Part shown: positions 40,264 through 60,408 of the stretch, piece after piece | Numbering within the stretch: position 1 is the stretch's first letter | Layout: each line of letters opens with the position of its first letter | Source of the DNA: Acidobacteriota bacterium | GTDB lineage: Bacteria; Acidobacteriota; UBA6911 | Direction: 5' to 3' | Assembly: GCA_012719355.1 (NCBI GenBank) | Contig: JAAYAM010000077.1 | Coordinates: 25,383 to 89,382, forward strand | DNA length: 64,000 nucleotides | The notes under the pieces: generated by a model | Told to the model about the DNA's origin: nothing | Seen by the model: the letters and a program-made list of their open reading frames with translations, nothing else | The model's database searches: none | Translations under genes and position numbers: made by a program

Positions 40264-41168
40264 ACATAGTGCCGGGAATATTTCTGTCAGGAGTTCTGCT
40301 GTTGCAGGCCGCGCCGCACGGCGTTGAGATCAGGGAAGACGTCAGTCCCCGCACAGCAACGGTAGGAGATCGTATCCGGATACTCCTGACCGTTTCCGCA
40401 CCGGCCCATTACCGGATCGACATACAGACGCCGGCCGAAGGCGAAGATTTCTCAATCCTCGAAGAGACCAGGACGTCATCAGCAACAGCTCATCGTGCAC
40501 AGATTATCGCTGCCGCCTACAGGACAGGCACATTCCGCTTCCCTCCAATCCCTGTCCGGATAACAGCACCTGAAGGAAAGGAATTCTCGGCCTTCACTCC
40601 CGGAGCTGTGGTCGAAATCAAAAGCGTGATCGCCGGAGAAGACCCGCGGCTGAAAGATCTGAAGAGACAGGAGGAGATTCCCGGCAAGACGCACGCGCGG
40701 CTCTGGCTCTTTGCAACACTGACGTTGTGCATTCTGGGCGCACTTGCCTGGCGAGCGGTCAGGCGCCGGCGCAGGGTTGCCGCGGCTGCATCCGCTGCAG
40801 AGAAGACCCCTGCGCCTGACGGGCTTTCCTCTGCCGAGGCTGAACTGCAACGGCTCCTCTCGAGCGGGTTTACCGCCGGCGCAGCCCGGGGATGTTACAT
40901 ACTCCTCTCGAACATCATCAGGAAGATTGTTGAAAACGGTCTGGGAGTCCCCGCTATGAAGAAAACAACATCAGAGATAGTCGGGAGGATGCGTCTAAGA
41001 CGGGATGTTGCCGATGAGATCACCGACCGGGTCGAATCGCTGCTGTCGCGCTGTGATCTGGTCAAGTTCGCCGGATATACTCCATCCCCGGCTGAGCATG
41101 AAACTGCAGCAAAAGAGGCGGTCGGATTACTTGCCGTCTGCCGTGACAGGCCTGACAGGGGGCTCTGA
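40260..41168 (+). CDS. membrane protein of the Bat operon (DUF4381-like)
   Basis: N-terminal signal/TM and one central TM (LWLFATLTLCILGALAW). Positionally equivalent to the hypothetical gene between DUF58 and batA in Bat operons. Confidence 0.55.
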   Translation: MNIVPGIFLSGVLLLQAAPHGVEIREDVSPRTATVGDRIRILLTVSAPAHYRIDIQTPAEGEDFSILEETRTSSATAHRAQIIAAAYRTGTFRFPPIPVRITAPEGKEFSAFTPGAVVEIKSVIAGEDPRLKDLKRQEEIPGKTHARLWLFATLTLCILGALAWRAVRRRRRVAAAASAAEKTPAPDGLSSAEAELQRLLSSGFTAGAARGCYILLSNIIRKIVENGLGVPAMKKTTSEIVGRMRLRRDVADEITDRVESLLSRCDLVKFAGYTPSPAEHETAAKEAVGLLAVCRDRPDRGL

Positions 41169-42157
41169 TGCATCTGCAGAATCCTGAGTTTCTATTGCTG
41201 CTCCCTCTCATACCGTTGGTGATCTGGAGATACATAAAACTCCAACGCAGCAGACTGAGAGGCCTGCAGTTTTCGTCGGCAATGGCGCTCGAAGGGGTGC
41301 GGCCATCCTGGACGGTTCACGCACGCCACGTCCTGTTTGTGTCCAACACGGTTGCTCTGGCGCTGACGATAACAGCCCTCGCCCGGCCGCAGAAGGGGAC
41401 CGAGATTGAAGAGGTGTTGACGGAAGGGATCGATATCATCATGGCGCTGGACGCGTCCGGCAGCATGGCAGCCGAGGACTTCGAGCCGCACAACCGTTTC
41501 TTCGTGGCGAAGTCAGTCATCAGCACGTTCATCGAAGGGCTGCGTCACGATCGGGCCGGGCTCGTGGTGTTTGCGGGGAAGGCACTCACCCGCTGCCCTC
41601 CGACTCTTGACTACGGAGCTCTCAGGAATGTGCTCGAAGAGACCCGTCTGGGAGAGATCGAAGACGGCACTGCCATCGGCAATGCCTTGGCCTGCTGCCT
41701 CAACCGCCTTCGTGTGAGTACGGCAAAGTCTAAAGTAGTCATTCTGGTAACCGACGGAGTAAACAACCGGGGAGAAATCCAGCCGGCGGATGCAGCCTTG
41801 ATGGCCCAACTGCTCGGCGCGAGAATATACACGGTCGGAATCGGATCCTCGGGAACAGCCCGGTTCCCCATTCAGGATCCCGTGTACGGCAGAACGTATG
41901 TAGACATGCAGGTTGAAATCGATGAGGAATCGCTCCGAAATATCGCTGAAAGCACGGGAGGGATCTACTACCGCGCAACCGACAGGCCTTCCCTGGAGAA
42001 GATTTTCGCGGAAATCGGCCGTCTCGAAACAACCGAGATACGGTCAAGGGTGCACCGACGCTACAGTGAGCGATTCCACTATTTCCTGCTCCCTGCGCTC
42101 GGGCTCGTTCTCCTTGGAACGCTCACGGGCTACTCCCGTTTTTCCAGGATACCGTGA
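41168..42157 (+). CDS. batA: vWA-domain protein BatA
   Basis: Two N-terminal TM helices, then a vWA domain with the MIDAS motif DASGSM...TDGVNN, and a C-terminal TM. Confidence 0.75.
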   Translation: MHLQNPEFLLLLPLIPLVIWRYIKLQRSRLRGLQFSSAMALEGVRPSWTVHARHVLFVSNTVALALTITALARPQKGTEIEEVLTEGIDIIMALDASGSMAAEDFEPHNRFFVAKSVISTFIEGLRHDRAGLVVFAGKALTRCPPTLDYGALRNVLEETRLGEIEDGTAIGNALACCLNRLRVSTAKSKVVILVTDGVNNRGEIQPADAALMAQLLGARIYTVGIGSSGTARFPIQDPVYGRTYVDMQVEIDEESLRNIAESTGGIYYRATDRPSLEKIFAEIGRLETTEIRSRVHRRYSERFHYFLLPALGLVLLGTLTGYSRFSRIP

Positions 42158-43743
42158 TGATATTCGCCAGACCTGATTACCTTCATCTGCTCTGGGCGGT
42201 CCCGTTTCTCGCCCTCTTTTTTTATCGATCGTTCCTGGTACGACGGCGAAGGCTGGAGACAATGGTGGGCACGGCTCTACCGATCACCCTGACGGGCAGA
42301 GCCGTCATCAGGGTTCTGTGCGTCATCGGATTCTTCCTGTTTGGCATACTGGCAGCCGCACGGCCTCAGTGGGGACAGAAGACCGAAACGGTTCACCGCC
42401 GCGGCATCGATCTCATCATTGCGCTCGACACTTCGTACAGCATGGGTGCCGATGATGTCGTCCCGAACCGGCTGGAGAAAGCCAAAACCGCGATCAAAGA
42501 TCTTATCAAAAGATCCGAAGGAGACCGCATCGGACTGATTGCTTTTTCCGGCGGCGCCTTCGTTCAATGTCCGCTGACGCTTGATTACGGCGCGGCCTAC
42601 CTCTTTCTCGAGGCGGCTGCCTCAGGAATGATTCCGGAACCCGGGACCTCGCTTTCGTCGGCCATAAGGACCGCCACCGCGGCATTCGTCGAAAAGGAAA
42701 CAAAGTACAAAGTGCTCGTGCTGTTCACCGATGGAGAGGATTTGAAAGGAGGTGTGGACAACGCAGTCCGGGAGGCCAGGAAGGCTGGGGTCGTCATTTA
42801 CACGGTCGGGATAGGATCGCCTGAGGGAATCCCGCTACCGGTTCGAAGCCTGGACGGCGGCATCCTGGACTACAGGAAAAGGCCGGACGGGAAGGTGGTG
42901 GTGAGCCGTCTCGATGAAAACGGCCTGGCCGAAATCGCGGAGAGTACAGGCGGGCGCTATTTCAGGGCAACGGCCTCAGGAGCCGAAATTGCTGCAATGT
43001 ACGATGACATTTCCCGGCTGGAAAAGAAGGAACTGGAATCGAGCATCTTCCGGAATTACGAGGACCGCTTCCAGTACCCCCTCGCGATCGCAGTCCTTTT
43101 CCTGGTTGCGGGATCCTGGATCAGTGAAAGCCGGAGACCGTGGACAGGAAGACAGATCGGGCTGTTGGCAGTCGCAGCGGTCATGGCATTGCCGGCATCG
43201 GCTTCGTCCCGGTCGGCGGCTGCGAAAAACAACGACGGAAACAGCTATTTCGCCGAGGGGAAATATGTAGATGCCGAGAGAGCGTACATGGAGGCGCGCG
43301 AAAGGGATCCCCGCAGGCCGGAGCTTTTGTATAACCTCGGCAATTCGCTGATCAGGCAGAAGAAGTACGGCCCGGGGATCCGGGCGCTTCAACAGGCGAT
43401 CGAAACGGGAGACGATGCCCTCAAGCAAAAGAGCTGGTTCAATGCCGGCTGCGCGCTCTTCCTGATGGGCGATTACGAGGCCTCGGCGGATGCATTCATC
43501 GAGGCGCTCAAGCTGGATCCCTCGGACCTGGACGCCAAGCATAATCTGGAAATGGCATTGCAGGCGAAACAGCCGGCAAGCCACAAACAGGAATCCGCAG
43601 ACAGTCGCCCCCCGCAACAGACTCGATTTACCAGAGAACAGGCGGCGCAATTGCTGGATGCCATTCAGGAACAGGAAACAGAGGAACAACGCAGGTTGAT
43701 ACAACGCCGGGTGAGACCGGCATCAAACGAGAGGGACTGGTGA
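42154..43743 (+). CDS. batB: vWA-domain plus TPR protein (BatB-BatC fusion)
   Basis: TM + vWA MIDAS (DTSYSM...TDGED), then C-terminal TPR repeats (YNLGNSLIRQKKY, WFNAGCALFLMGDYEAS). Confidence 0.75.
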   Translation: MMIFARPDYLHLLWAVPFLALFFYRSFLVRRRRLETMVGTALPITLTGRAVIRVLCVIGFFLFGILAAARPQWGQKTETVHRRGIDLIIALDTSYSMGADDVVPNRLEKAKTAIKDLIKRSEGDRIGLIAFSGGAFVQCPLTLDYGAAYLFLEAAASGMIPEPGTSLSSAIRTATAAFVEKETKYKVLVLFTDGEDLKGGVDNAVREARKAGVVIYTVGIGSPEGIPLPVRSLDGGILDYRKRPDGKVVVSRLDENGLAEIAESTGGRYFRATASGAEIAAMYDDISRLEKKELESSIFRNYEDRFQYPLAIAVLFLVAGSWISESRRPWTGRQIGLLAVAAVMALPASASSRSAAAKNNDGNSYFAEGKYVDAERAYMEARERDPRRPELLYNLGNSLIRQKKYGPGIRALQQAIETGDDALKQKSWFNAGCALFLMGDYEASADAFIEALKLDPSDLDAKHNLEMALQAKQPASHKQESADSRPPQQTRFTREQAAQLLDAIQEQETEEQRRLIQRRVRPASNERDW

Positions 43744-46280
43744 GACCCCTGGCTGCCGATTGGAACGGAGTGAAACGGGTGATTTTACTTGTTCTCTTTC
43801 TGCTCCCTGGAATTCGGGCGTTTGCTGAACACATCAGAGTCACCGCGTCAATAGACAGCGAAGTCATCGGGATTGAAGACCAGCTGCGCCTAACCATAAC
43901 AGTTTCCGGCAGAGAAAGCGGCAATGTAAATGCTCCCAGGATCGGCGATGTAAGGGGTTTCAGAGTCGTCGCCGGTCCCGATGTCAGCTCCCGGCTCCAG
44001 TGGGCCGACGGAGAAGCGAGGAACTGGAAGGCGTTCAGCTATGTTCTTCTTCCCGAAAAGGAAGGACAGTTCACAATCGCGCCTATCGAAGTCGCAATAG
44101 AAAACAGGATTTTCAGAACCGAGCCACTGCAGGTTCGCGTTACTTCGGCTCCGCAAAAAAGATCTCCGGTTCAACGAAAGATGCCTCGTCCGGTCCCGGA
44201 TCCGGAGAACGTATTTGTCAGAGCTGAGCTCGACAGAGATACGGCTTATCAGGGGCAGCAGGTAACCCTTTCATACCTGGTCTACACCACCGTCTCGATT
44301 TCGGGCATCGATCTTCACGAGAGCCCGCCGCTCAACGGATTCTGGGTGGAAGATCTCGAAATCGACGGAAATCCCAAAGGGATTGCCCGGATCGTCGACG
44401 GCCGCGAATATCGCATGTTTACCGTCAAGAAACAGGCGCTGTTTCCGACCTCGTCAGGCAGAGTCAGCATACCTTCGAGCACGTTCGCGCTTTCAGCAAA
44501 CTCGGCCGGCGGCTTCTTTGACTTTTTCGGAAGGACCGAGACCGTCTACCGCAGAACTCCGGAATTGATCCTGGATGTAAAGCCGATCCCGGACAAAGGG
44601 CGTCCGGCAGGCTTTTCACATGCGGTCGGATCCTTCGGCCTGCGCGCCCAGATCGATAAGAACGAGGTTACTGCCGGCGATGCTGTCTCGCTCCAGGTAG
44701 CGCTGGAAGGAAAAGGAAATTTGAAAATGATTCCGGAGATCGGCCTTCCCTCCTTTAGCGGTTTCACCGTCTACTCACCCAGGCGCTCGGATGACATACG
44801 CGCTTCTGGCGACGGGCGGATCGGAGGCAGCAGGATATGGGAGTATGTTCTTGTGCCGGTAGAGCCGGGGGAGCAGACCATCCCTTCGGTTTCCTTCTCT
44901 TACTTTGATCCCGAGCGGGAGGAGTTTGAAACCGTATCGACAACCGCACTGGAACTGAAGGTGACGCCAGGTGTCGCCGAGCCGGCGCCGGATCTGAGGA
45001 GTGCGAAGAGTGCGGACATTCATCGGTTGAAAGAGTTCTTGGGTGATCCGGGCGGAGACCGCACGCCTCTATACAGGAATTACTGGTTCTACGTGATCGC
45101 GGCGATCCCGCTTGCCTTCAATTGCGGAGCATTGCTGTACCTTAAGCGTTTTTCGGGCGGAAAGGCACGTTCTGCCAGAGAGACCGCCGTCGAGCAGCTG
45201 AAGCTTGCCGAGAAAGAGGGATTGTCGATGCCCCGTCTTTTCTATGACCGGGCTTCGGCAGCCCTGTCAGGATATCTCTCGAAGACATTCAATCTCTCCG
45301 AAATCGAACTGACAACGGATGGAGTCAAAGCCGCTCTCTCGCGTAACCGCGTTGAAGAGGCTGTCGTGCAGGAGACTATGACCTGTCTGCAGGAGTGCGA
45401 CTACGGACGCTTCGTCGCGGCCTCGGGGTCCCCGGAAAAGATGCGGGAACTGGCGGGTCGCATTCATAAGATCATCGATGCCCTCGACAAGAAAGGAAAG
45501 ACCGGGGTGTCCGCGCGCGCGGCATCGGCCGTTTTACTGCTCTTGCTGGCGCCCGGACTGTGCCTGCCGTCGCAAATGGAGCTGTCTCCTGAAAAGCTTT
45601 TCGGGAAAGGAAACTCCGAATACCGGAAGGGGAACTACAAGGAAGCGGCGGAATGCTATCGGCGGCTGCTGGAATCGGGTTTTGAAAGCGGTGCCGTCTA
45701 CTACAACCTGGGAAATACCTGCTTTCGAGAGGAACGACTCGGGGAAGCGATCTACTACTGGGAGAAGTCACTGCAGAAATCACCGGGAGATCGGGAGGCT
45801 CTCGCCAACCTGGCATTGGCCGATTCCTTTCTCGAGGGCGGATCTCAATTTGCGCAAGATGCCGCGGTGCCGCGCGTGTCAGCCGCCGTCCAGGAGTTCC
45901 TGTCAATTGAGCGGCAGAGCCTGGCAGTGCTGTTTCTGTTCGTGCTAACGAATCTATTCTTTTCGATTCACCTGCCGGCCAAAGACCCGCGGCGCTCCGT
46001 CCGGAGACTGCGGGCGGCAGCCGTCGCTGCAATCCTGTTCATTGTCTGTACGGCATCGCTCAGTTGGAGAATCTACGAACGGGACTTCTATACAAGAGGG
46101 GTAGTGCTGGAATCGGGCGTTGAGGTGCGCAGCACCCCCGGTCAGGACAGCCCGACAGTGTTGACAATTCGTGAGGGGACACGGGCCAGGGTTGATCAAT
46201 CAGAGGGCGAATGGTACAGGATAAGACTTGTCAACGGCTTGAGTGGCTGGATACACAGGGACAAGTTGAGAATCCTTTAG
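43740..46280 (+). CDS. batD: BatD-like oxygen-tolerance protein fused to a TPR + SH3b module (BatD-BatE fusion)
   Basis: N-terminal BatD-like beta-rich domain. Central TM segments and TPR repeats (YYNLGNTCFREERLGEAIYYWEKSL). C-terminal SH3b (GEWYRIRLVNGLSGWIHRDKLRIL). GTG start overlaps the batB stop. Confidence 0.65.
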   Translation: MRPLAADWNGVKRVILLVLFLLPGIRAFAEHIRVTASIDSEVIGIEDQLRLTITVSGRESGNVNAPRIGDVRGFRVVAGPDVSSRLQWADGEARNWKAFSYVLLPEKEGQFTIAPIEVAIENRIFRTEPLQVRVTSAPQKRSPVQRKMPRPVPDPENVFVRAELDRDTAYQGQQVTLSYLVYTTVSISGIDLHESPPLNGFWVEDLEIDGNPKGIARIVDGREYRMFTVKKQALFPTSSGRVSIPSSTFALSANSAGGFFDFFGRTETVYRRTPELILDVKPIPDKGRPAGFSHAVGSFGLRAQIDKNEVTAGDAVSLQVALEGKGNLKMIPEIGLPSFSGFTVYSPRRSDDIRASGDGRIGGSRIWEYVLVPVEPGEQTIPSVSFSYFDPEREEFETVSTTALELKVTPGVAEPAPDLRSAKSADIHRLKEFLGDPGGDRTPLYRNYWFYVIAAIPLAFNCGALLYLKRFSGGKARSARETAVEQLKLAEKEGLSMPRLFYDRASAALSGYLSKTFNLSEIELTTDGVKAALSRNRVEEAVVQETMTCLQECDYGRFVAASGSPEKMRELAGRIHKIIDALDKKGKTGVSARAASAVLLLLLAPGLCLPSQMELSPEKLFGKGNSEYRKGNYKEAAECYRRLLESGFESGAVYYNLGNTCFREERLGEAIYYWEKSLQKSPGDREALANLALADSFLEGGSQFAQDAAVPRVSAAVQEFLSIERQSLAVLFLFVLTNLFFSIHLPAKDPRRSVRRLRAAAVAAILFIVCTASLSWRIYERDFYTRGVVLESGVEVRSTPGQDSPTVLTIREGTRARVDQSEGEWYRIRLVNGLSGWIHRDKLRIL

Positions 46281-49916: not shown

Positions 49917-51437
49917 ATGACGAATCAGAGCAAAGCCGGAGCTGAAAGCCGGGCATACACAGCATTGAAGGAAGTCTTCCAGGCAGGCCGCCCCATCATC
50001 TTTATCCGCACGGCCGAAGAGGCGCGTGCACACACGCTCCTGCAGGAGATTGGGCGCAAACTTTTTGCCGGGTCCACCACGGTGTGGAGCTGGTCGCTCA
50101 CAACCGGCCTTTCGCACCCGGAGAGCACGAATAGAGAGAAACTCGGGCCCGATGCAGTGCTCGACTTTATCGCGTCACACCGGCAAAAGGGGATATTCCA
50201 GCTGAAGGATTTCCATCATTTCATGGACGATCCTCTCATACGCAGGCGTTTGCGCGATCTGTACGGGCTCTGTCTGGACTCAGGCAAGTTCATTGTCATC
50301 ACATCCCCAGGCCGAACGATACCTGAAGAACTGGGCCGTCAGATTGCCCTGGTTGAGCTGCACACGCCGGATGCGGAAGAATTGCTCCACTTCCTTCGCA
50401 GCGAAGCGGAGACAATTGCGCGGCAGGGATTTCGGGTTGACACTTCCGAGCCGGTTCTGTTTGCACTTTCGCGGGCACTGCAGGGACTGACTATTGATGA
50501 GTCGCGTCACGCACTTCGGCGGGCGCTGTCGGTCGCCGGCGCCCTGGACATAAACTCGCTGCAGAGCCTGGTGGACGAAAAGAAGCTCGTTGTAAACAGG
50601 ACCGGACTGGTACAGTACGTTTCGGATTCGACCCGGATAGAGGATGTCGGCGGGCTCGAGTACCTGAAGGCATGGCTGACGGAGCGCCGCAAACTCTTCA
50701 TCGAGCGCGACAGCATGAGCGCCGAAATCGTGCCCAAAGGGCTGCTGGTCATGGGAGTTTCAGGCTGCGGCAAGAGCCTTTCAGTCAAAGCCATCGCATC
50801 CTGCTTCGGACTGCCGCTTTACCGGATCGAAATGAGCGAGGTCTTTTCCGGGCGACATGGCAATCCCGACGCCGCATTTGTCGAGGCGTGCCGTACGGTC
50901 GAGGCAGTCGCGCCGGCAGTCGTCTGGTTTGACGAAATTGAGATGGGGATTACGGGCAGGGCGACTGACGATGCGTCTCTCAGCCGCATCTTCGCATTCT
51001 TCCTCACGTGGATGCAGGAGAAAGCGCGCGGCCTGTTTGTCGCAGCGACAGCCAACCGGATCGACTTGCTTCCTGCCGAGATGATCCGGAAGGGAAGGTT
51101 CGACGAGGTCTTCTTCATCGATCTCCCCACAGAAGAGGAAAGGTCTGAAGTTTTCAGGATCCATCTCGAGAAACGCGGGATCGATCCAGTGCCGCTTCAG
51201 CTGCACAGGTTGAAGATAATCACCCAGGGATGGACGGGAGCCGAAATAGAACAATGCGTCGTCTCCGCCCTGACACAGGTGCGGCTGCAGAACCGGGAGC
51301 TTACGTTTGACGACCTTCATGAAGCGGCCCAGAACGTCATTCCGCTTTCAAAAACGATGCGCGAGCAGGTGGACCATATACGGTCCTGGGCTTATGACCG
51401 CGCATTGCGCGCCTCGCCGAAAGAATCGCGCAAATAA
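49917..51437 (+). CDS. AAA+ ATPase (classic clade) with a degenerate N-terminal ATPase-like domain; unknown function
   Basis: C-terminal AAA module: Walker A GVSGCGKS, Walker B VVWFDEIE, second region of homology ATANRIDLLPAEMIRKGRFDEV. The N-terminal 250 aa are Rossmann-like but lack Walker motifs. Confidence 0.75.
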   Translation: MTNQSKAGAESRAYTALKEVFQAGRPIIFIRTAEEARAHTLLQEIGRKLFAGSTTVWSWSLTTGLSHPESTNREKLGPDAVLDFIASHRQKGIFQLKDFHHFMDDPLIRRRLRDLYGLCLDSGKFIVITSPGRTIPEELGRQIALVELHTPDAEELLHFLRSEAETIARQGFRVDTSEPVLFALSRALQGLTIDESRHALRRALSVAGALDINSLQSLVDEKKLVVNRTGLVQYVSDSTRIEDVGGLEYLKAWLTERRKLFIERDSMSAEIVPKGLLVMGVSGCGKSLSVKAIASCFGLPLYRIEMSEVFSGRHGNPDAAFVEACRTVEAVAPAVVWFDEIEMGITGRATDDASLSRIFAFFLTWMQEKARGLFVAATANRIDLLPAEMIRKGRFDEVFFIDLPTEEERSEVFRIHLEKRGIDPVPLQLHRLKIITQGWTGAEIEQCVVSALTQVRLQNRELTFDDLHEAAQNVIPLSKTMREQVDHIRSWAYDRALRASPKESRK

Positions 51438-51455
51438 CCGGAAGCCGAATTAGGC

Positions 51456-54287
51456 TCACCTCAGCTCAATGATATTGACGTTCTTCTCTTCGAGGGCAAG
51501 TTCAAGCAGATCGTCGCGGCAGGTGAACAGCATGAGCTGGCGCCGTGAAGCCTCTCCTGTAAGGACGCCGATCGCCTGCTTCAACCGGTCGCTGTCGTAA
51601 GCTGCGAAGGGCTCATCCAGCAGGCAGGGGCACGGTTCCTCCTCGTTGGAAATCAGATCAAGAACACCGAAGCGCAGCGAGAAATAGAGCTGATCCTGGG
51701 TGCCTCGGCTCAAATGCTCGGCTAACCGGAGTTCCCCTGAATTCGTCTCCCGCACCCAGACCTGGAAATCCGGATCGATTTTTACTTCTTCATATCGCTT
51801 GTTGCACAGCAGCAGGAACCGCTGTTCGACAGAGGCATTTAGCTGCGGCGCGAGCACCTCCTGTTGCTGGCGCGACAGCTTCTGCAGCGTTTCGAGAGCA
51901 AGCTCCAGCGCAGTCCTGTTCTTTTGCAGCCGGTCGAAATCCTCTTCCGCCAAAGCGAGGTCTTCTTCGATTTCCGAAGAGAGCCGGGAATTCTCGAACG
52001 CGTGCTTCACTCTCTCAACAGCTCGGGCATGCTCTTCCCGTGCCCGGACCAGCTGCGATCTTATCTCTTCCTCTTTTTCTTCGGCTTCGGCGATATCGGG
52101 AAGGTAAGGCAGAAGCGGCGCAGGATCCTGTGAGTCCTCCGGTGCACCTTCGGGACATGACTGTGCCATCAGCTCATCGAGTCGCTCTTTCCACTGCTCC
52201 AGGCTCATATTTTCAGATAGCCGGCGAAATTCGCGCGTGTACGACGCTTCCTTTTCGAGCATGTCGAGCAGCTTCTGCCTCCTGGCGCATTCCTCGCGAA
52301 ACTGCTCCGGGGTGGCGACACCGGCGTGATCAAGCAGCGACTGAATGCGGGAACATTTCGCTTCATGCTCGTCTGCAAGCTCCTGCTCCCTTGCCTCCAG
52401 GGAAGCGGCCTTCTGAACACAGGCATCGTATTGGGAATCGAGCTCGCGGTAGCGCCTGAGATTCGCCCTCAGGACATCGATCTGGAATTTGAGGTTGCCG
52501 GGAGAACAGGAAAGCCCGGCCTTAGCCAGGCCATCCTTGAGCAAAAGGTAAAGTTCCTCCAGCTGAGCATTCAGGCGTTCTCTCTGCTGTTGCACTTCGT
52601 CCAGGCGCGATCTCAGGTCGCCGAGTTTCTGCCGGTCCTGCTCCGCCTGTCTTGCAGCTGCAAGGAAATCATCGATCCTGACGAAGCCCGAGTTCTTCAT
52701 AACTTCGCCCAGTTCGCGCCGTTTCCTTCCGCCCTCCTCTCTCGTGGAATTCAGCTCCTTTTCGAGGCTGCGAATCATCTCTCTCGTTTTCGCAGCGGTT
52801 TTCCGCGCCAGGGCGGCGCCGGCAAAGAGAATGATGGCAACCAGCACCAGCAAGGCCCCGAGTCCGATCACCGCACCCTGCGGCAAAACGTCCAATCCGA
52901 ATCCGTACCGGACAACGGAAGGCGCGATTCCCAGAAACAGCGACAGTCCGGCAAGAAGTTTTCTGCTCGAGGAGGTGCGCTCCGCTTCGGCAAGAGCCGA
53001 TTTTTCAACCGCTGCCTTTTCCGCCAGCACAGTGCACTTCTGGGAAGCGATCTGTTCTTCTTCGGCGGCCTCGCGCGCAATGCGCTGCCAGTCGCTTTCG
53101 GGATTCCTGAAGGCCGCGCTCAGTTCGCTCAAGCGGTTCTCCAGTGCAGTGACTTCGCCTTCGAGTCTGGTCTGGGTTTTCTGCTGACCATCTCTCTGCA
53201 GCGTAATGCTGAGATAGGTCACAAACCATTCCGTGATCTTCTCTGTCTCATTGCCCTTGGCGAATTCCGCGTATGCGGCAAGTTCTTCCCTCTGCCGTTC
53301 GGCCCTTGAGAGACGCTCCAGCGCTTCTTCCTTTTCGGCCCGGATCTCGTCCAGATGTTTTCCCAGACTGTCGCGGGCGCCCATCAGCTCATTGAGTTCA
53401 TTGAGATCTTCCGCAGGAAAATCCTCGCGCGCGCCCAGAACGCCGATTCCGCTCCTGAGGTCGAAAAGATTTTCCTGGAGTTCCTCAAGCATCCGGATTT
53501 TCGCGGTCACTTCGCGTCTGCGAGCGGACAGAAGCGCTCTCTGGATTGCGGCGAGTTCCCGCTCCAACCGGGACATTTCGTTCGCCGCGCGACTCCGCTC
53601 CTCTATCCAACCCTGAAATTGCCGTCGGCGCTCTTCCAGCGCCGTTCGCTCGTTCTGCAGTGTCTGGACAAGATCCATCGCCTGGCGGTAAGGCTTCGTC
53701 GGGGCCCGTTCTGAACCGATAGAATCAAGCTTGTCCTGAATCTCCAACAGGCTCCGGCGAATCGAGAGTTCCTCATCGCCGGACTGCGCGAGATTCGCTA
53801 TCCTGTCGCGTATGCTCTCGTGCCCGCTGATCTCCGCGGCCCTGTTCTCACGTATGATTCCCACGGATTCGAAGAGCTCCTTCGGCATTCCGAGATGGGT
53901 CCGGGCAAAGAGCACCTCTCCGTTGCGCTGCTGTTCGTACTGTCTGGTGATCTCCTCGCCAGCCGACGTGCGAAGCTCGATCCTGGTTTCCTCTCTTCCG
54001 AACCCCCGGTGTATTTCAATTTCACGGCCGTCCTGGAGTCTGCACCATACGATCCCCCCGTATTCCTGGCAATGCCATGGCCTGTAGTGCTCGACCCACG
54101 GATCCAGGCGCCGCTGGACCCTAAGGTCGGCCCGTAACTGGCCGTACAGCATTCCGGTGAGGAATCGCTGGAGGGTCGATTTACCGCCTTCATTGGCGGC
54201 GAAAACAAGATTGAGCCCGCTCTGGAATTCGAGCATCGTGTCGCGCAGTTTTCCAAATCCAAGGATATGACAGCGTGTCAGGATCAT
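51456..54287 (-). CDS. SbcC/Rad50-like ABC ATPase with a central transmembrane hairpin (YhaN/SbcE-like)
   Basis: N-terminal Walker A FAANEGGKSTL. Long coiled-coil arms rich in E/R/A/L. C-terminal signature/D-loop region (LSRGTQDQLYFSLRF, CLLDEPFAAYD). Two hydrophobic helices at aa 444-495 where a zinc hook would be expected. Confidence 0.75.
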   Translation of the reverse strand: MILTRCHILGFGKLRDTMLEFQSGLNLVFAANEGGKSTLQRFLTGMLYGQLRADLRVQRRLDPWVEHYRPWHCQEYGGIVWCRLQDGREIEIHRGFGREETRIELRTSAGEEITRQYEQQRNGEVLFARTHLGMPKELFESVGIIRENRAAEISGHESIRDRIANLAQSGDEELSIRRSLLEIQDKLDSIGSERAPTKPYRQAMDLVQTLQNERTALEERRRQFQGWIEERSRAANEMSRLERELAAIQRALLSARRREVTAKIRMLEELQENLFDLRSGIGVLGAREDFPAEDLNELNELMGARDSLGKHLDEIRAEKEEALERLSRAERQREELAAYAEFAKGNETEKITEWFVTYLSITLQRDGQQKTQTRLEGEVTALENRLSELSAAFRNPESDWQRIAREAAEEEQIASQKCTVLAEKAAVEKSALAEAERTSSSRKLLAGLSLFLGIAPSVVRYGFGLDVLPQGAVIGLGALLVLVAIILFAGAALARKTAAKTREMIRSLEKELNSTREEGGRKRRELGEVMKNSGFVRIDDFLAAARQAEQDRQKLGDLRSRLDEVQQQRERLNAQLEELYLLLKDGLAKAGLSCSPGNLKFQIDVLRANLRRYRELDSQYDACVQKAASLEAREQELADEHEAKCSRIQSLLDHAGVATPEQFREECARRQKLLDMLEKEASYTREFRRLSENMSLEQWKERLDELMAQSCPEGAPEDSQDPAPLLPYLPDIAEAEEKEEEIRSQLVRAREEHARAVERVKHAFENSRLSSEIEEDLALAEEDFDRLQKNRTALELALETLQKLSRQQQEVLAPQLNASVEQRFLLLCNKRYEEVKIDPDFQVWVRETNSGELRLAEHLSRGTQDQLYFSLRFGVLDLISNEEEPCPCLLDEPFAAYDSDRLKQAIGVLTGEASRRQLMLFTCRDDLLELALEEKNVNIIELR

Positions 54288-55429
54288 AGCAGCCTCACTC
54301 CCCGTCCACTAAGTGCCTGGACGCCATACAACCGCGCTCGTTCGAGAACCGTTCTTTCGGATTCCGAGGCCGAGGCGATCCGCTCGTTCATGATGCGGAC
54401 AAACCGCCCGCGCATCGTCTTTTCCCGTGCGAGAGATTCGAAATCATGCGCCGGCTGAGTCCTATCTTCCCACTGCAGGTAAAGCGCCTCCCCTGCAAGC
54501 CTTTCTTCAAGTTCGGAGAATGAAAGGTCGAGTCTGGGATCCAAAGTCCCGGCAAGTCGGACCCGGAGAATCGTGTTGGCATCAAACGATACGCCGCGCC
54601 GCTGAAGAATCGCGTCCAGGATCTGCTCGCGTGTTGAGAACGCGTCGCATTCGATTTCGATGGTGTTCAGGTTGTACTGGCTGCATGACCTGCTGTCGAT
54701 TCTTACGGCTCCATCTGTTATCTCACCGACGAGATAGCCGCGGCTCCCCTCTTCGTCCCATCCCCTCCCCTCAGGTATGCCCGAATACCAGACCTGCGTC
54801 TCATCAATCGGATTCGGGATCTGACGCTGCTGATGATAATGACCGAGGGCGCAGTACCGCACGTTCTTGCGAACGATCTCCTCGACCGCGAACGGTCCGT
54901 GTGGCGACTTTCCGGTGGGAACACGGCTGAGATCGGATCCGTGGGACAGGACGATGTTGAAGAAATCGTCGGGGAGCACGGGCAGGCGTTCGAAGTGATG
55001 CTCGTCGAGCCTGCTTCTGCTGAAGCCGAAGCCCGTGACCCGAACGCCAAGATCCGGAAGTTCAACCGAACGGAATTCCTCTTCAGTGAAGATGTGGACG
55101 TTCGAGGGCCATGATTCTTCCCTGTAAGGCGATCCCTGAATACATGGGTCGTGGTTGCCGGGAGAAATGAAGACCGGGGCAGGATTCAGTCTCTCCAGCT
55201 GAAGTCTGAGAAATTCGAAGGTGTCGGGAGTGATGCGGTCGATTTCGAAAAGATCTCCTGCTATCAGCACGAAATCAACGCCTTCGTTCTGCACATCCTC
55301 CACTATACGGCGGAAGGTACCGCGTATGGCTTCCCTCTTGCGATCTCCAAGACGGGAAGGAAAACCCGAACCGGAAAAACTGGTGTCCAAATGAACGTCC
55401 GAGGTATGGACAAATCGAACGGGTCTCAT
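54284..55429 (-). CDS. SbcD/Mre11-like calcineurin-fold phosphoesterase (YhaO/SbcF-like)
   Basis: Motifs I-V of Mre11-type phosphoesterases: HTSDVHLD, AGDLFE, GNHD, VLSHG, GHYH. ATGA overlap with the downstream ATPase gene. Confidence 0.8.
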   Translation of the reverse strand: MRPVRFVHTSDVHLDTSFSGSGFPSRLGDRKREAIRGTFRRIVEDVQNEGVDFVLIAGDLFEIDRITPDTFEFLRLQLERLNPAPVFISPGNHDPCIQGSPYREESWPSNVHIFTEEEFRSVELPDLGVRVTGFGFSRSRLDEHHFERLPVLPDDFFNIVLSHGSDLSRVPTGKSPHGPFAVEEIVRKNVRYCALGHYHQQRQIPNPIDETQVWYSGIPEGRGWDEEGSRGYLVGEITDGAVRIDSRSCSQYNLNTIEIECDAFSTREQILDAILQRRGVSFDANTILRVRLAGTLDPRLDLSFSELEERLAGEALYLQWEDRTQPAHDFESLAREKTMRGRFVRIMNERIASASESERTVLERARLYGVQALSGRGVRLL

Positions 55430-55450
55430 TGCGGTTCTCCCTTCACATGC

Positions 55451-56842
55451 TTATGCCAAATGCACGCTTTCAAGCAGCCTCGGCACATGCGTCTTCCAGC
55501 CGAGAGTGCCCTCGATCTCGCGCGCGAGAGCCCTGCTCGACTCCTCCTCTCCATGGACGATGAATGTGAGCCGCGGCGCCTCTCTGAACTTGCTCAGCCA
55601 GCGCATAATCTCGATGGAATCCGCGTGGCCGGAGAATGCGTCAACGGTGCGGATCTGGGCACGCACCGGCACCATTTCACCATGGATCTTGATTGCTCTT
55701 GCACCGTCTCTCAGCAACTGGCCGCGCGTCCCGACGGATTGGTAGCCTACAAACAGGATGGTATTGCGCGAATCCGGCAGCCGGTATTTCAGATGGTGCA
55801 GGATGCGTCCGCCGGTGGCCATCCCGCTGGCCGAGACTATCACGGCCGGAAAGCGGATGTCGTTGATCTTCTGTGAATCTTCACGCGTGTGCACGAACTG
55901 CAGGCCGGGACAATGGACGGGACACTCTCCCGTTTCCCGGAAGACCTTCTTCGCCTCCTCGTCAAACTCGTCGATATGGCGGCAGAATACGTCGGTTACT
56001 CTCCGGGCCATAGGGCTGTCGACGAAGACCGGGAGGTCGGGGATAAGACCGCGGACTTTCATGTCCCGCAACAGGTACAGAAGCGTCTGAGTACGGCCCA
56101 CCGCAAAGGACGGGATTACAACCATCCCGCCGCGTTTGGCGGTCTCCTTGATGATCGCGGTCAGTTCCTTTACAGGGTCGTCCTCCATATGCACACGGTT
56201 CCCGTACGTCGACTCCAGGACAAGGTAGTCTGCCTGGATGACAGGCGCCGGATCCCTCAGGACAAGGGCGTCGTATCGCCCCAGATCGCCGGAAAACACC
56301 AGTCGCATGGGCCTTCCGTTGAGCATGTTGACCTCGACGGTTGCGGAACCGAGTATGTGCCCCGCGTCGCGGAACCTGATCTGTGTCCCGTCAGGCAGTT
56401 CCGTCTGCTCGTCGTAATCGATTGTGCGGAAAAGCGGCATCACGTGCTCAGCATCTTCGCTTGTAAAAAGCGGGAGTGCAGGCGTGTGCTTGCTGAATTT
56501 CATTTTGTTGGCAAAACGTGCATCTTCTTCCTGGAGGTGCGCGGCATCCATCAAACTGATTTCACAGAGTTCCGCAGTCACGGCGGTCGTCCAGATTTTT
56601 CCGCGGAAACCCTCACGCACCAGTACCGGAAGCATCCCCGCATGGTCTATGTGCGCATGAGTGAGCAGCACGTGATCAACAGATGAAGGCTTCACCTGCG
56701 GGGGTTCCCAGTTCATAAGGCGGAGGTGTTTGGGGCCCTGGAACATGCCATAGTCGACCAGGAAACGAGTTTCTCCGGTATCGATCAGAAATTTTGAGCC
56801 GCTGACCGTACCGGCCGCTCCTAGAAACCTGATTTTAGCCAT
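55451..56842 (-). CDS. beta-CASP family metallo-beta-lactamase-fold nuclease
   Basis: MBL motifs LLTHAHIDHAG (HxHxDH), GH and the acidic residue, then a beta-CASP insert and C-terminal RMMBL-like motifs (DAFSGHAD, IVHGEE). Start at the internal Met MAKIRFLG. 21 nt upstream of the sbcD-like gene on the same strand. Confidence 0.8.
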   Translation of the reverse strand: MAKIRFLGAAGTVSGSKFLIDTGETRFLVDYGMFQGPKHLRLMNWEPPQVKPSSVDHVLLTHAHIDHAGMLPVLVREGFRGKIWTTAVTAELCEISLMDAAHLQEEDARFANKMKFSKHTPALPLFTSEDAEHVMPLFRTIDYDEQTELPDGTQIRFRDAGHILGSATVEVNMLNGRPMRLVFSGDLGRYDALVLRDPAPVIQADYLVLESTYGNRVHMEDDPVKELTAIIKETAKRGGMVVIPSFAVGRTQTLLYLLRDMKVRGLIPDLPVFVDSPMARRVTDVFCRHIDEFDEEAKKVFRETGECPVHCPGLQFVHTREDSQKINDIRFPAVIVSASGMATGGRILHHLKYRLPDSRNTILFVGYQSVGTRGQLLRDGARAIKIHGEMVPVRAQIRTVDAFSGHADSIEIMRWLSKFREAPRLTFIVHGEEESSRALAREIEGTLGWKTHVPRLLESVHLA

Positions 56843-56925
56843 GATGTTGAATATGCAAGAACAGGCACACAAGATGCAACATACAAATCTTCAATTCCCT
56901 TCAAAGAATTGTTGCGGACGCTTCG

Positions 56926-59574
56926 CTACGGCTTCTCAAGCCCCTTCGCGGCCGTGGTAAGAAGTGCGGCCGTCGGTTCTGCGGCGGACGTGAGAATCGA
57001 ATTGAACAGCAGTTTGAATGTCCCGTGCGACTGCGCGCGGTGCTGAACCCTCAACGGCATCAGGATCATTCTTCCTTTCCCGAGCTTCACTTCGACCGCG
57101 CCGATTTTGCCGTGCAGATATGATTCACCATGGAGCCAGCCGCTCCTGAGAATGTCTGCCGAAGGATAGCGGACGAGAACGGAATCCCCGGCTGCCGACT
57201 CGGGAGCGGTGGGTTCAAGCGCCATGGAGTTGATGAAGTAGCCGCTTGCCTGTTCCGGCATGCCATAGCCGATAGGATGAGTGTTGTCGACTGAAATGCG
57301 CAGAATGGAGCCGGGGCAGAGAAATGTTTCCCGGTTCAGACCTCGCAACGCATCTCTGTACGGAGCACCGAACTTCTCGACAGCGAGAAGCGAACTCCGG
57401 CCAAGCGTGATAAGAGTCCCCCCCTGGTTGATGAAGTGGTGGAGCGCCCTGACGCCGGGCTCTTCGATCCCTCCGCGGAATTCCTCCGGCATGTTCTTCT
57501 GAGTCAGACCGTAGATTATCTCAGACGAACTCATATCCGGAAAAATGATCACATCAAATTTGTTGTCCAGCGCCCCGGCCCTGATGTCTTCCGGATGAGC
57601 GGTGACGAAGGGAAATTCATTCTGTTCCAGCAGCCAGCGTGTCCAGCCTTCATCCATATTGCCGCCCCACGGCTGGTAGAGCGCAATACGGGGCGACTGA
57701 ATGCGCAGCCCCTCAAGTTCAGGAAGATCCTCAGCTACGGCATCAATCCCAAGCTCTTCGGTAATTTGTCTCATCACAGGACGAAGATCGTTTCCGCCGC
57801 GTACCACGATCGCCCCGGGCCCGTATTGCCGCCTGCCGAGCGACAGTGGATGCGCAACCCAGGTTACGTAGTAGCCCAGTTTGAGCAGGCGGTTCACCGC
57901 CCTGGTGCTGTTGTTCGGCTCGTGACTGATAACATAGTCACGGCCTTGACCAGAAAGTCTCCCGGAAGGAAGTTTGACCCGGTTCAACCTCTTGAGTCTG
58001 GCCTCAAACGGGTTGCGGACAAAGACGGTCTCGACGCCCATCTGCATCCCGAGCGACCAGCCGGTAATGTCGTATGGCGAATAGGACGAATTCGCAAGGG
58101 CAGCCGCCGGATAGGTCTGCGGCTCAAGCATGTCTTTGAGGTAGGCCCGGAAAGGCTGGCTCATCAGCAGCACGTATGTGCCGGAGGGATACACGACATC
58201 ATCGGCTGCAAACGGCTCCTGCGCCTGGTGCACCTCGATCCCCGCGTATTCCAGCGTCTGCAGCATCTTGACGGCTGTGGGCCGGTCGGCCTGCTCGGCG
58301 GGAACGATGACTGCGTACGGATCACCTTTCTTTCCAAGCTCGATCTGGCGCTTGCCGACAATGTACAGCGATTCCAGTAACTGCGAACGGAGCCCGGCGC
58401 TGCTTTCAAGCAATCCCATGGTCGCAATCAGCTCGTAATCGACAATATCGCGCAACGACCACTTTCCTCCGCGCCACGGCTGCGGATACTGCACCCGCGG
58501 GTTCAGATCGGCGGGAGGCGGAAGCAGCTTGCCGTTCTGCGGGAGTGTTGTATTCACCCGAGGGGATTGCGGATCCGCCAACTCCTGCTCGATTGTTCCC
58601 GCCAACCGGGCTGAGGCGACTTCGGTCAGAAGCCCTATCATGTTGTGCCACAGTCCAGCCCACGCCATGGCGCCTTCCCACCAGTAGGTGTAGACGTCGC
58701 CATAGATGATTCCATTCTTCCCTTCGCGCTCGAGCGCCGCCGCCTGCGAGAAACCAAGCAGCCCGGCATTGCGGTAGATGAGCGGATCCACGTTCGGATT
58801 GATGGGGTCCATGGCGGGCATCACGAAGATGCGTGGTCCTGCGGAGCCCATCTGGTGCAGGTCGAGCCAGACTGCAGGGAACCAGTCCTGATAAAGGACT
58901 TTGCCGATGAGCCGCGTCTCTTTCTGGGTGAACATGAACGAATCACGGTTGTTGTCATGGCCGGTATAGGGATGGAACAGCCATGGCAAGGGCGCGTCTT
59001 CATGCGGAGTATCGACGGTCCGGTTGTACCAGTCTGTGATCATGATGTGGCCGTCGGGATTAAGGCTGGGAACCAGCAGGAATACCACACCATCCAGAAT
59101 AGCGTCGATCTGCGGCGTCTTTTCCGTCACCAGTCTATGCGCCAGCTCGACCGACATCTGGCTCGCACCGATCTCGTTAGAGTGAATGCTGCAGGTAACG
59201 AGGACGAACACCTTTCCTTCGTTGATCAGCTTTCGCGCCTGGACCTCGTCGGAAATGGTACGCGGATCAAAGAGCCTTCGGTTTATCTCCCTGTAGTGAT
59301 CGAGTTCCCTCAGATTGCCGGGGGAAGAGATCACCGCCATCACCAGGGGATTCCCCATGGTGCTCTCTCCCAGGTGATGAAACTTGAGCCGGTCCGTCGT
59401 TGCCGAGAGTTCCTGCAGGTAGGCGATCAGCCTGTCCCACTGGATCAGCTTCTTTTCCGCACCAGCACGATGTCCGAAGAACTGCTCGGGGCTTCTCGGT
59501 TGAACGGAAGTATGTCCAGGGGACAGGAAGAAGAGCACCGCAATTGCGAGGAAACAGTTTCGGACAAGGCTCAT
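56926..59574 (-). CDS. secreted M14-family zinc carboxypeptidase (large, multi-domain)
   Basis: Signal peptide from internal Met (MSLVRNCFLAIAVLFFLSPGHTS). M14 zinc ligands HSNE...H in CSIHSNEIGAS. About 880 aa with a large C-terminal extension. Confidence 0.75.
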   Translation of the reverse strand: MSLVRNCFLAIAVLFFLSPGHTSVQPRSPEQFFGHRAGAEKKLIQWDRLIAYLQELSATTDRLKFHHLGESTMGNPLVMAVISSPGNLRELDHYREINRRLFDPRTISDEVQARKLINEGKVFVLVTCSIHSNEIGASQMSVELAHRLVTEKTPQIDAILDGVVFLLVPSLNPDGHIMITDWYNRTVDTPHEDAPLPWLFHPYTGHDNNRDSFMFTQKETRLIGKVLYQDWFPAVWLDLHQMGSAGPRIFVMPAMDPINPNVDPLIYRNAGLLGFSQAAALEREGKNGIIYGDVYTYWWEGAMAWAGLWHNMIGLLTEVASARLAGTIEQELADPQSPRVNTTLPQNGKLLPPPADLNPRVQYPQPWRGGKWSLRDIVDYELIATMGLLESSAGLRSQLLESLYIVGKRQIELGKKGDPYAVIVPAEQADRPTAVKMLQTLEYAGIEVHQAQEPFAADDVVYPSGTYVLLMSQPFRAYLKDMLEPQTYPAAALANSSYSPYDITGWSLGMQMGVETVFVRNPFEARLKRLNRVKLPSGRLSGQGRDYVISHEPNNSTRAVNRLLKLGYYVTWVAHPLSLGRRQYGPGAIVVRGGNDLRPVMRQITEELGIDAVAEDLPELEGLRIQSPRIALYQPWGGNMDEGWTRWLLEQNEFPFVTAHPEDIRAGALDNKFDVIIFPDMSSSEIIYGLTQKNMPEEFRGGIEEPGVRALHHFINQGGTLITLGRSSLLAVEKFGAPYRDALRGLNRETFLCPGSILRISVDNTHPIGYGMPEQASGYFINSMALEPTAPESAAGDSVLVRYPSADILRSGWLHGESYLHGKIGAVEVKLGKGRMILMPLRVQHRAQSHGTFKLLFNSILTSAAEPTAALLTTAAKGLEKP

Positions 59575-59814
59575 TCGACAATCCCTCCAGGCGATTGACA
59601 GTTGTTCGGGATGTTGGAAGAGTCTGGTGCGCGAGAAGAGGAACTCAAGAACCGGAAAACCAGAATCGCCCAATTCTACACGGTAATGGGCGATTCAGCA
59701 CAGGAAAAGTTGAACATCCCTCCGCAGCCCCGGTTTTGGCGCGACATCACCGATTCGGGTCGCGATGGCCTTGTATTGCGGTACCCCGCCCATGCGGCGT
59801 AACGGCCGGGATGG

Positions 59815-60408
59815 TCAGCGGGGATTGTAGAATTCACGGCGGTCAAGAACGCCGTTCCTGTTGCGGTCGAGCCTGTCAAAAACGGACGTCGAGTCAAGCC
59901 ATTCGGAGCGAGTTATGATCCCGTCTCCATTCAAATCGAGATTTTCGAATCTTTCGTTCCACCATCTCGCTTTTCTTGAAAGGAATTCCTCGCGGCTGAG
60001 CACTCCATCGCGGTTTGAATCGATGTACTGGAAATCCACGGCTTTCCCCGGCCATTCCTCGGGCTCAATCAGATCGCTGGTATTGGCGTCGAGGCGTTCG
60101 AACGCGGCCAGCCTTCCATGATCGGCATCGTCCACTTCTTCCTCGTCAACTCTCAGAGACAAACGAAGCTCTTCCAGTGAGAGCTGTCCGTCATTGTCCT
60201 TGTCGTGATCGGTGAAGAACCTTTCCCATTCATCCCGCGAGACGAAGCCATCCCGGGTCGTATCCATCCGCCATGACAATTCGAAGCCCGCCTGATCCGG
60301 GTCACCCGGCTGCAGGCTCTGGCCTGCCGCGGCGCACACCGAAACCGCAAAAACCAGCGTAAGCATGGAAAGGAAGGTGGCACTTTTCATCATCTTGTCT
60401 CCATCCAA
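59815..60408 (-). CDS. secreted EF-hand calcium-binding repeat protein
   Basis: Signal peptide; four DxDxDG-type loops (DTTRDGFVSRDE, DKDNDGQLSLEE, DSNRDGVLSREE, DLNGDGIITRSE, DRNRNGVLDRRE). Confidence 0.7.
   Translation of the reverse strand: MDGDKMMKSATFLSMLTLVFAVSVCAAAGQSLQPGDPDQAGFELSWRMDTTRDGFVSRDEWERFFTDHDKDNDGQLSLEELRLSLRVDEEEVDDADHGRLAAFERLDANTSDLIEPEEWPGKAVDFQYIDSNRDGVLSREEFLSRKARWWNERFENLDLNGDGIITRSEWLDSTSVFDRLDRNRNGVLDRREFYNPR

Follow-up and report, generated by a model that had tools for sequence, protein, structure and literature searches.

The SbcE/SbcF (YhaN/YhaO) proteins constitute a widespread and almost unstudied fourth SMC-like system, the function of which, in the literature that we searched, has been studied only in Bacillus subtilis. 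In this bacterium SbcE and SbcF have a role in double-strand-break repair and transformation, YhaO interacts with YhaN, and SbcE contains an insoluble hydrophobic 'central domain' (PMC2811018). In this work, we have analysed a locus that resembles the B. subtilis SbcF/SbcE and YhaM system in that a phosphoesterase gene immediately precedes, and is coupled to, the gene of a hookless SMC-like ATPase with a hydrophobic central domain (PMC2811018). The locus belongs to a stretch of 64,000 nucleotides (the window) from an Acidobacteriota bacterium of the UBA6911 lineage (assembly GCA_012719355.1, contig JAAYAM010000077.1, positions 25,383 to 89,382 of the forward strand).

Three genes on the reverse strand make up the locus. 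They encode, in the order in which they are read, a nuclease of the beta-CASP fold (55451-56872 from a TTG codon, or 55451..56842 from an ATG, according to the list of open reading frames (ORFs) and Pfam), a YhaO/SbcF-like calcineurin-type phosphoesterase of the Mre11/SbcD family with 381 aa (54284..55429) and a YhaN/SbcE-like ABC ATPase of the SMC/Rad50 superfamily with 943 aa (51456..54287). A previous, sequence-only reading of this DNA had described three same-strand genes with 21-nt and -4-nt junctions, and the ORFs, domains and catalytic motifs bear this out; Pfam, PDB and Foldseek also agree with its fold assignments (beta-CASP, SbcD-like and SbcC-like). Our results show that the locus is a known operon type with a lineage-specific beta-CASP neighbour. 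Such a neighbour of YhaO/YhaN, here of the type of the Thermus thermophilus protein TTHA0252, was not described in the literature searched. The survey adds three further points: the pair reaches well beyond Gram-positive bacteria, the hydrophobic hairpin at the coiled-coil apex is found in most members of the ATPase family, and the gene beside yhaO-yhaN is often, although not always, that of a nuclease of varying fold.

The YhaO/YhaN pair

The phosphoesterase matches Pfam Metallophos (8.3e-16) and has its motifs DVH (11), GD (58), GNHD (91) and GHYH (196) intact. It is 28% identical to Enterococcus faecalis YhaO over 268 aa (E 2.5e-26), and the solved Mre11/SbcD proteins in PDB align with its N-terminal part only (E ~5e-08). 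The ATPase matches Pfam AAA_23 (6.5e-12), AAA_27 (2.6e-06), SMC_N and SbcC_Walker_B, the last with a score of 17.6 against a cut-off of 27, and bears an intact Walker A (NEGGKST, 32), signature (LSRGTQDQ, 859) and Walker B (LLDE, 889). E. faecalis YhaN matches it at both ends (E 1e-13 and 2e-12). The AlphaFold model of this protein (56 homologues; mean predicted local distance difference test score, pLDDT, 77) shows an ABC head composed of both termini and a long antiparallel helical hairpin of roughly 600 residues, and the top Foldseek matches of the model are Smc5/6, Rad50 of the Mre11-Rad50-Nbs1 complex (MRN), condensin, JetC and MukB, with Rad50 heads also among them. The genes of the two proteins overlap by 4 nt (ATGA), by which yhaO and yhaN are translationally coupled.

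Could these genes be a canonical sbcCD pair that lies beside a housekeeping RNase J gene? In the annotations of the Joint Genome Institute (JGI) many homologues of the ATPase are named 'YhaN' or, more generically, 'SbcCD ATPase subunit', which would fit this explanation. Against it, the NCBIfam Mre11/SbcD matches of the phosphoesterase stay under their cut-offs (TIGR00619, 42.4 bits versus 77.65), neither a solved SbcC or Rad50 nor any other PDB sequence matches the ATPase at E 1e-3, a motif search found no CxxC zinc hook in it, and a hydrophobic hairpin occupies its centre. Nor is RNase J found among the NCBIfam matches of the beta-CASP protein, for which the best models are those of Cas14 and aCPSF1 and the best PDB relative is TTHA0252. 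We therefore regard a canonical sbcCD operon as hardly credible.

On sequence grounds the pair is of the YhaO/YhaN (SbcF/SbcE) type, as the sequence-only reading had proposed, because the ATPase has no CxxC hook and a hydrophobic centre, and because both proteins resemble Enterococcus YhaO/YhaN more than they resemble the solved SbcD, Mre11 or Rad50 proteins. Each feature of the family for which we tested was present in the locus, namely the phosphoesterase motifs, the ATPase with a split head, the lack of a hook, a yhaO gene just upstream of yhaN and closeness in sequence. The Enterococcus and Bacillus loci also have the gene order and the 4-nt overlaps of the window, although the proteins share only ~27-29% identity with the Bacilli YhaO/YhaN. 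The locus differs from the yhaO-yhaN-yhaM arrangement of Bacilli in that it lacks the HD-domain exonuclease YhaM, as do the 74 other YhaN loci sampled, and has an extra nuclease upstream, of the beta-CASP fold and probably of opposite polarity. With Mre11-Rad50/SbcCD it has in common a nuclease and an ABC ATPase with a long coiled coil, the Mre11 phosphoesterase motifs and the matches to the Rad50 fold, but the window ATPase is hookless, its apex is hydrophobic and the sequence similarity falls below the family cut-offs.

By analogy with B. subtilis SbcE/SbcF and with Mre11-Rad50/SbcCD, we propose that ATP-driven engagement of the heads would clamp DNA ends and position the nuclease for end or hairpin processing, and that the pair may have roles in double-strand-break repair and in the handling of incoming DNA.

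Two sites of the ATPase vary within the family. At the position of the ABC H-loop histidine (window 51456-51530, which encodes the C-terminus of the ATPase) the alignment reads FTC-R in this clade, with C923 invariant, and across the YhaN family the residue is R, Q, H or K. The Walker B motif has DE in Acidobacteriota and in a few other lineages, and DD in most of the other lineages aligned. Variation at the H-loop and Walker B suggests that the YhaN family has an unusual ATPase chemistry.

A hydrophobic hairpin at the apex of the coiled coil

The central part of the ATPase, aa ~444-497 (window 52797..52958), is strongly hydrophobic, with a Kyte-Doolittle maximum of 2.84 over 19 residues. In the AlphaFold model it forms a helical hairpin with a turn at aa 464-469 between two helices, 400-463 and 470-533, both of them hydrophobic. 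Hydrophobic segments at the midpoint are present in most homologues of the YhaN family, in all the phyla recovered, and many homologues have two of them. The apex hairpin of the window ATPase matches the SbcE central domain, and in the place of a zinc hook it is predicted to be a membrane-inserting or dimerising element; it may thus tether or dimerise the YhaO/YhaN complex at the membrane. The sequence-only reading had called this ATPase membrane-anchored: the hydrophobic hairpin is there, and the anchoring is a prediction from hydropathy and the model.

The beta-CASP protein

The nuclease encoded upstream of yhaO has the Pfam domains Lactamase_B, Beta-Casp (2.1e-38) and RMMBL (5.5e-20) and intact motifs HAHIDH (62), AGH (160), SGD (184), SGHA (404) and VHGE (429); H406 and H430 do not vary among 23 homologues. 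Its start is probably the ATG at 56842, which gives a protein of 463 aa that begins 'MAKIRFLGAAG'. This codon is favoured because most of the homologues listed have 463-464 aa and are aligned from there, from 'M-x-K-I-R/K-F-L-G-A-A-G'. The TTG at 56872, which would add 10 residues, is probably not the start.

The best relative of this protein in PDB is TTHA0252 (E 2e-82, aligned over aa 7-442), followed by Cas14 of type VII CRISPR and then by archaeal aCPSF1/FttA and CPSF73. There are no SNM1/Artemis chains among its 26 PDB matches at E 1e-10 or better, and the RNase J models (TIGR00649 and RNase J1) do not appear among its NCBIfam matches. Motif C is a histidine; in beta-CASP enzymes this motif, as reportedly noted by Callebaut et al. 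in 2002, is a histidine in those that act on RNA and a valine in SNM1/Artemis. Since TTHA0252 is its best relative, the RMMBL ('RNA specificity') domain is present, motif C is a histidine and SNM1/Artemis is not matched, the protein is classified by its sequence in the RNA-processing branch (TTHA0252/CPSF73). The analogy with Artemis and MRN that the sequence-only reading had drawn thus holds at the level of the fold only. By analogy with TTHA0252, the protein most likely acts as a 5'-3' exo/endoribonuclease. TTHA0252 itself is a 5'-3' exoribonuclease; it is not essential, and it influences mRNA levels globally (PMC4229858). RNase J/DncA from Deinococcus has been reported to cut DNA, although its DNase activity is debated (PMC6300522), and since RNA-type beta-CASP enzymes can show DNase activity, work on DNA by the window protein is possible.

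The alignment with TTHA0252 covers essentially the full length, with all the metallo-beta-lactamase (MBL) and beta-CASP motifs and the same set of domains, including RMMBL. TTHA0252 differs in that it does not have a 14-residue insertion, at aa ~109-123 of the window protein, which is common to all the 107 family members that we compared, and it has not been reported to be paired with SbcCD-like genes.

Cas14 is the second closest group in PDB and gives the best NCBIfam model (406 bits), and it illustrates that members of this beta-CASP branch can be taken into service as the nuclease partner of other proteins. Nevertheless, the score stays far from the cut-off of 800, the C-terminal extension is missing (463 aa versus about 610) and our survey of the ORFs and domains of the locus turned up neither cas genes nor a CRISPR array.

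Another known arrangement that has to be compared is the ligase-associated DNA-damage-response operon, which consists of a Lhr-like helicase, a ligase, the MBL exonuclease TIGR04122 and the phosphoesterase PdeM. That bacterial operon, too, joins an MBL-fold exonuclease to a calcineurin-like phosphoesterase, there for DNA repair, but the beta-CASP protein of the window matches TIGR04122 only partially (55.6 bits versus a cut-off of 325), the locus showed neither a ligase nor a Lhr-like helicase gene, and its phosphoesterase resembles Mre11 and has an SMC-like ATPase as its partner.

How far the beta-CASP link reaches

We followed the link between the beta-CASP gene and yhaO-yhaN from both of its ends. 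A scan of species-representative genomes anchored on YhaN provided 74 loci, of which 41 belong to Acidobacteriota and 33 to other groups (Bacillota, Chloroflexota, metagenome-assembled genomes (MAGs) labelled Deferribacteres and Bacteroidota, one Archaeoglobaceae archaeon and unclassified bacteria), so that YhaO/YhaN reaches well beyond the Gram-positives. The counts given below refer to the 34 Acidobacteriota loci with enough upstream DNA, and 'absent' means absent within 6.8-8 kb. A second scan, of metagenomes, was anchored on the beta-CASP protein and provided 80 loci with flanks of up to 7 kb, the proteins of which are 46-52% identical to the window enzyme. The loci are not phylogenetically independent, the effective sample is therefore small, and the counts overstate the evidence both ways.

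YhaO adjoins YhaN in every complete locus among the 74, usually with a 4-nt overlap, and the junction is -4 nt in every complete Acidobacteriota locus. A MAG labelled Deferribacteres has the only split pair, with a 202-aa ORF that has no Pfam match between the two genes (L151:7249-7857).

The beta-CASP gene behaves differently. It lies directly before yhaO in 9 of the 34 Acidobacteriota loci (gaps of 15-140 nt), and in 7 a small exonuclease gene stands between the two (gaps of 59-565 nt), which makes it contiguous with the YhaO/YhaN block in 16/34 loci, across two deep clades. In 5 loci it is parted from yhaO by unrelated genes (TPR, PMT glycosyltransferase, NlpC/P60 and PALP, some of them on the opposite strand), and in the remaining 13 it is absent. 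Spacing is also loose: the distance from the beta-CASP gene to the next gene ranges from 15 to 565 nt, compared with 15 nt between the exonuclease gene and yhaO in 8/12 loci and -4 in all cases between yhaO and yhaN. Outside Acidobacteriota, a beta-CASP gene of this family was found beside YhaN in 0/33 loci, and YhaO or YhaN was found near other beta-CASP genes in 0/80 metagenomic loci. The neighbours in these 80 loci are heterogeneous (peptidases, glycosyl-transferase-3 enzymes, TPR proteins, an aminotransferase and methylmalonyl-CoA mutase are examples), the largest neighbour cluster includes only 7/80, and the TTHA0252-type beta-CASP family in general behaves as a stand-alone gene. Among the 107 sequences, we found no feature in the region examined that parts the copies linked to YhaO/YhaN from the stand-alone ones.

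We do not think that the beta-CASP protein is an obligatory third subunit of YhaO/YhaN, and the three-part module of ATPase clamp, phosphoesterase and exonuclease that had been proposed as a general functional unit is not borne out, with a link confined to one Acidobacteriota group and missing or interrupted in about half of its loci. The sequence-only reading had itself named, as a finding that would speak against it, a beta-CASP gene that is the conserved housekeeping RNase J-like ortholog and that has unrelated neighbours in related genomes; such neighbours are found in part of the loci, and no RNase J model was among the NCBIfam matches of the protein. On balance, and with little to spare, we favour a core YhaO/YhaN DNA-end-processing pair with the beta-CASP gene as an independent RNase neighbour, probably co-transcribed. 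We read it in this way because about half of the related loci have an intact YhaO/YhaN pair with no link or an interrupted one, and because it is never found outside the Acidobacteriota group, the spacing is loose, the protein has an RNase signature and an unrelated M14 peptidase is kept in the same block in both Acidobacteriota clades. The core of the locus is a chromosomal, vertically inherited yhaO-yhaN (sbcF-sbcE) operon, and the beta-CASP gene would be a lineage-specific, dispensable neighbour in an old Acidobacteriota gene block that also includes the M14 carboxypeptidase.

Several observations weigh against this independence and point instead to a true accessory nuclease, which would serve the YhaO/YhaN machine as one among several interchangeable partners and might act as a 5'-3' exo/endonuclease on single-stranded DNA, RNA or RNA-DNA hybrids at the ends held by the clamp. 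Between the two clades, the YhaN proteins of which are 42-50% identical, only beta-CASP and M14 stay linked to YhaO/YhaN, whereas PepX, AAA+, radical SAM, GGDEF/ParA and EF-hand genes lose their linkage, and this retention of beta-CASP exceeds plain background synteny. Every beta-CASP relative at >=75% identity that we looked up sits in the triplet, including all five (5/5) that were picked to find another gene context. In the window, the two genes are on the same strand and the 21-nt spacer from the beta-CASP stop to the yhaO-like start (55430..55450) holds a GGGAG-type ribosome-binding site (aagGGAGaa), recognised by inspection, and no terminator-like hairpin in a consensus scan, on account of which the beta-CASP gene is probably co-transcribed with yhaO-yhaN in this genome. 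Nucleases also recur beside YhaO/YhaN in other lineages. We nevertheless hold this accessory role to be a real possibility but not a probable one: YhaO/YhaN is intact in the 13/34 loci without the link and in the 5/34 where it is interrupted, the association was never seen outside the phylum group from either anchor, linked and stand-alone copies look alike in the region examined and carry an RNA-type signature, and the small effective sample applies here too. The polarity of the presumed interchangeable partners also differs. YhaM is a 3'-5' exonuclease, and the DEDDy-like protein of the sister clade is predicted to be 3'-5' from its Pfam family, as opposed to the 5'-3' polarity of TTHA0252. 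Finally, neighbours of YhaO/YhaN that are equally tight and lineage-specific are clearly unrelated (ACPS, DUF92 and arginase).

If the beta-CASP protein did cooperate with the clamp, bacteria would offer an example of an RNA-type beta-CASP nuclease that acts jointly with a complex of the Mre11/Rad50 kind, and this cooperation would help to find out what the membrane-associated YhaO/YhaN variant does. If it did not, the locus would be an ordinary repair operon beside an RNase gene, as in the independent-neighbour reading that we prefer.

Other genes beside YhaO/YhaN

In the sister Acidobacteriota clade, a protein of ~190 aa with RNase_H_2 / DNA_pol_B_exo2 matches is encoded directly upstream of YhaO in 12 loci (L105, L107, L109, L110, L111, L114, L119, L122, L123, L126, L127 and L134; for example L107:6268-6837, + strand). 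Its motifs LDVET, FNGENFDF and YCKMDVE are DEDDy-like, and it is predicted to be a 3'-5' exonuclease. Neither the window nor the clade to which it belongs has this gene, which, where present, looks like a tighter partner of YhaO/YhaN than the beta-CASP gene. The sequence-only reading had seen in the window a displacement of the nuclease partner; some nuclease does often occupy this place, but the sister clade has the beta-CASP and the exonuclease genes together, which is not a simple displacement.

In Bacillus and Enterococcus, yhaM lies downstream of yhaN with a 4-nt overlap. When E. faecalis YhaM was searched against all the ORFs of the window and of the loci, only the Bacillus and Enterococcus loci matched; YhaM, which had been taken as the companion of the pair in Firmicutes, thus follows YhaN in Bacilli and is not general among the Bacillota sampled.

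Four loci, mostly from MAGs labelled Deferribacteres, have an ORF of 974-976 aa upstream of YhaO-YhaN on the same strand (L129:3766-6690, L148:3899-6823, L133:2997-5927 and L151:2428-5355). The two that were scanned, from L129 and L148, combine a UvrD helicase with a PD-(D/E)XK nuclease and are AddA/PcrA-like. In L129 and L148 this ORF touches or overlaps yhaO, and in L151 and L133 it is ~0.4-0.9 kb upstream. Such an AddA-like neighbour fits a DNA-end-processing role for YhaO/YhaN.

The Archaeoglobaceae MAG has an RNase J-like beta-CASP protein encoded 13 nt downstream of YhaN, which again speaks against mere neighbourhood. In Archaeoglobales we also observed a cassette composed of an HFX_2341/Csa3-like regulator, RmuC and an RNase J-like MBL protein, the genes of the last two overlapping by 4 nt (L128:6025-12329; L167:4118-7539; L168:4031-7542). 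In Geoglobus and A. sulfaticallidus it lies among HEPN/MNT, PIN/MazE, Mrr and McrBC genes, and in one Archaeoglobaceae MAG YhaO-YhaN stands in the place of RmuC, with the same regulator and the same MBL protein on either side.

Other lineages have arginase, ACPS, DUF92, response regulators, a DEAD-box helicase or CvfB as neighbours. The place beside yhaO-yhaN is thus a variable slot, which often but not always contains nuclease genes. Taking the slot further, YhaO/YhaN could be membrane-tethered Mre11/Rad50-like machines with a modular place for an accessory nuclease, in which the beta-CASP protein and the clamp would act jointly on the ends of nucleic acids. The occupant of the slot would be a TTHA0252-type protein here, beta-CASP plus the DEDDy-like protein in the sister clade, YhaM in Bacilli, the AddA-like protein in the MAGs labelled Deferribacteres and the RNase J-like protein in Archaeoglobaceae. 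We offer this general model, and this assignment of its fillers, tentatively and think that it is rather unlikely.

Genes of RNA metabolism recur around YhaO/YhaN, in the form of DEAD-box, CvfB, YhaM and beta-CASP RNases. The DEAD-box helicases are encoded upstream on the same strand in two Chloroflexota MAGs (L154:5475-6749 and L158:5583-6794), and so is the S1-domain RNA-binding protein CvfB in an Anaerosolibacter MAG (L135:5908-6759).

Genomic setting and a possible role in defence

Close relatives share a long neighbourhood around the locus, with leuS, sigma/anti-sigma, ParA-like, GGDEF, EF-hand, M14, beta-CASP-YhaO-YhaN, AAA+, PepX and radical-SAM/DUF3463 genes, in which peptidases and cysS are also listed. 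By the names of its homologues the window belongs to uncultured Acidobacteriota, and tentatively to subdivision 18, since the related loci include MAGs labelled UBA6911 and 'gp18'. Protein divergence tracks the clades, which indicates vertical inheritance. The region is syntenic core chromosome and not an island, and no mobile or defence neighbours were seen in the core synteny of the locus and its relatives.

The three genes had also been put forward as a candidate anti-phage or plasmid-restriction system. Such a system would be comparable to Wadjet or Lamassu. An SMC-like ATPase with a nuclease is a common architecture in defence, Foldseek finds JetC and the Lamassu protein LmuB, and beta-CASP nucleases have been recruited before, as in the type VII CRISPR protein Cas14, which is similar to the window protein. 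With PADLOC, the window proteins gave weak matches to LmuB (4.9e-06), PDC-S10 (4.5e-05) and GajA (1e-4), but these represent generic P-loop/SMC similarity (E 5e-06 or worse); none was obtained for the beta-CASP protein, the three genes fit no PADLOC system, and the partner proteins from other lineages were not members of any system either. A plasmid search with the ATPase returned only four matches, all of them weak, partial and on very large records, and none is a credible plasmid copy. With these results, a core-chromosomal setting and vertical inheritance, we consider a defence function improbable.

Transcription signals and neighbouring genes

Scans of the region for sigma-70 promoters and terminators gave counts at chance level. 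The only hit of note is a weak terminator-like hairpin with a 5-bp stem (51442..51457, reverse strand, consensus scan), which begins at the first base of the ATPase stop codon (51456-51458), runs downstream and is a possible end of the transcription unit. LexA/SOS boxes of the GTTC-N7-GTTC type matched twice in the window, versus 2.6 matches expected by chance, and not at all in the candidate promoter regions.

The beta-CASP gene is immediately preceded, on the same strand, by the genes of a secreted-looking EF-hand calcium-binding protein and of a 915-aa M14 carboxypeptidase (window 56926-60408, reverse strand). They end 83 nt before the beta-CASP ATG (56842), and no promoter- or terminator-like site was found in between. 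The transcription unit may thus mix unrelated functions (EF-hand, M14 and beta-CASP).

On the other side, a gene for a CDC48-like AAA+ ATPase (window 49917-51437, forward strand) faces the YhaN-like gene in convergent orientation, 18 nt away from it. Its product weakly resembles the anti-phage IetA/IteA models, with a score under the NCBIfam cut-off. As a fourth component of the locus it was discarded, since its presence follows the YhaN clade and not the presence of beta-CASP. Some kb away from the locus, at window ~41168-46280 (forward strand), a BatA-BatD-like run of genes (VWA/TPR/BatD) was identified only through the Pfam annotation of a 94%-identical relative, by synteny with L006:18004-22832, and this run is followed by an OsmC-like gene.

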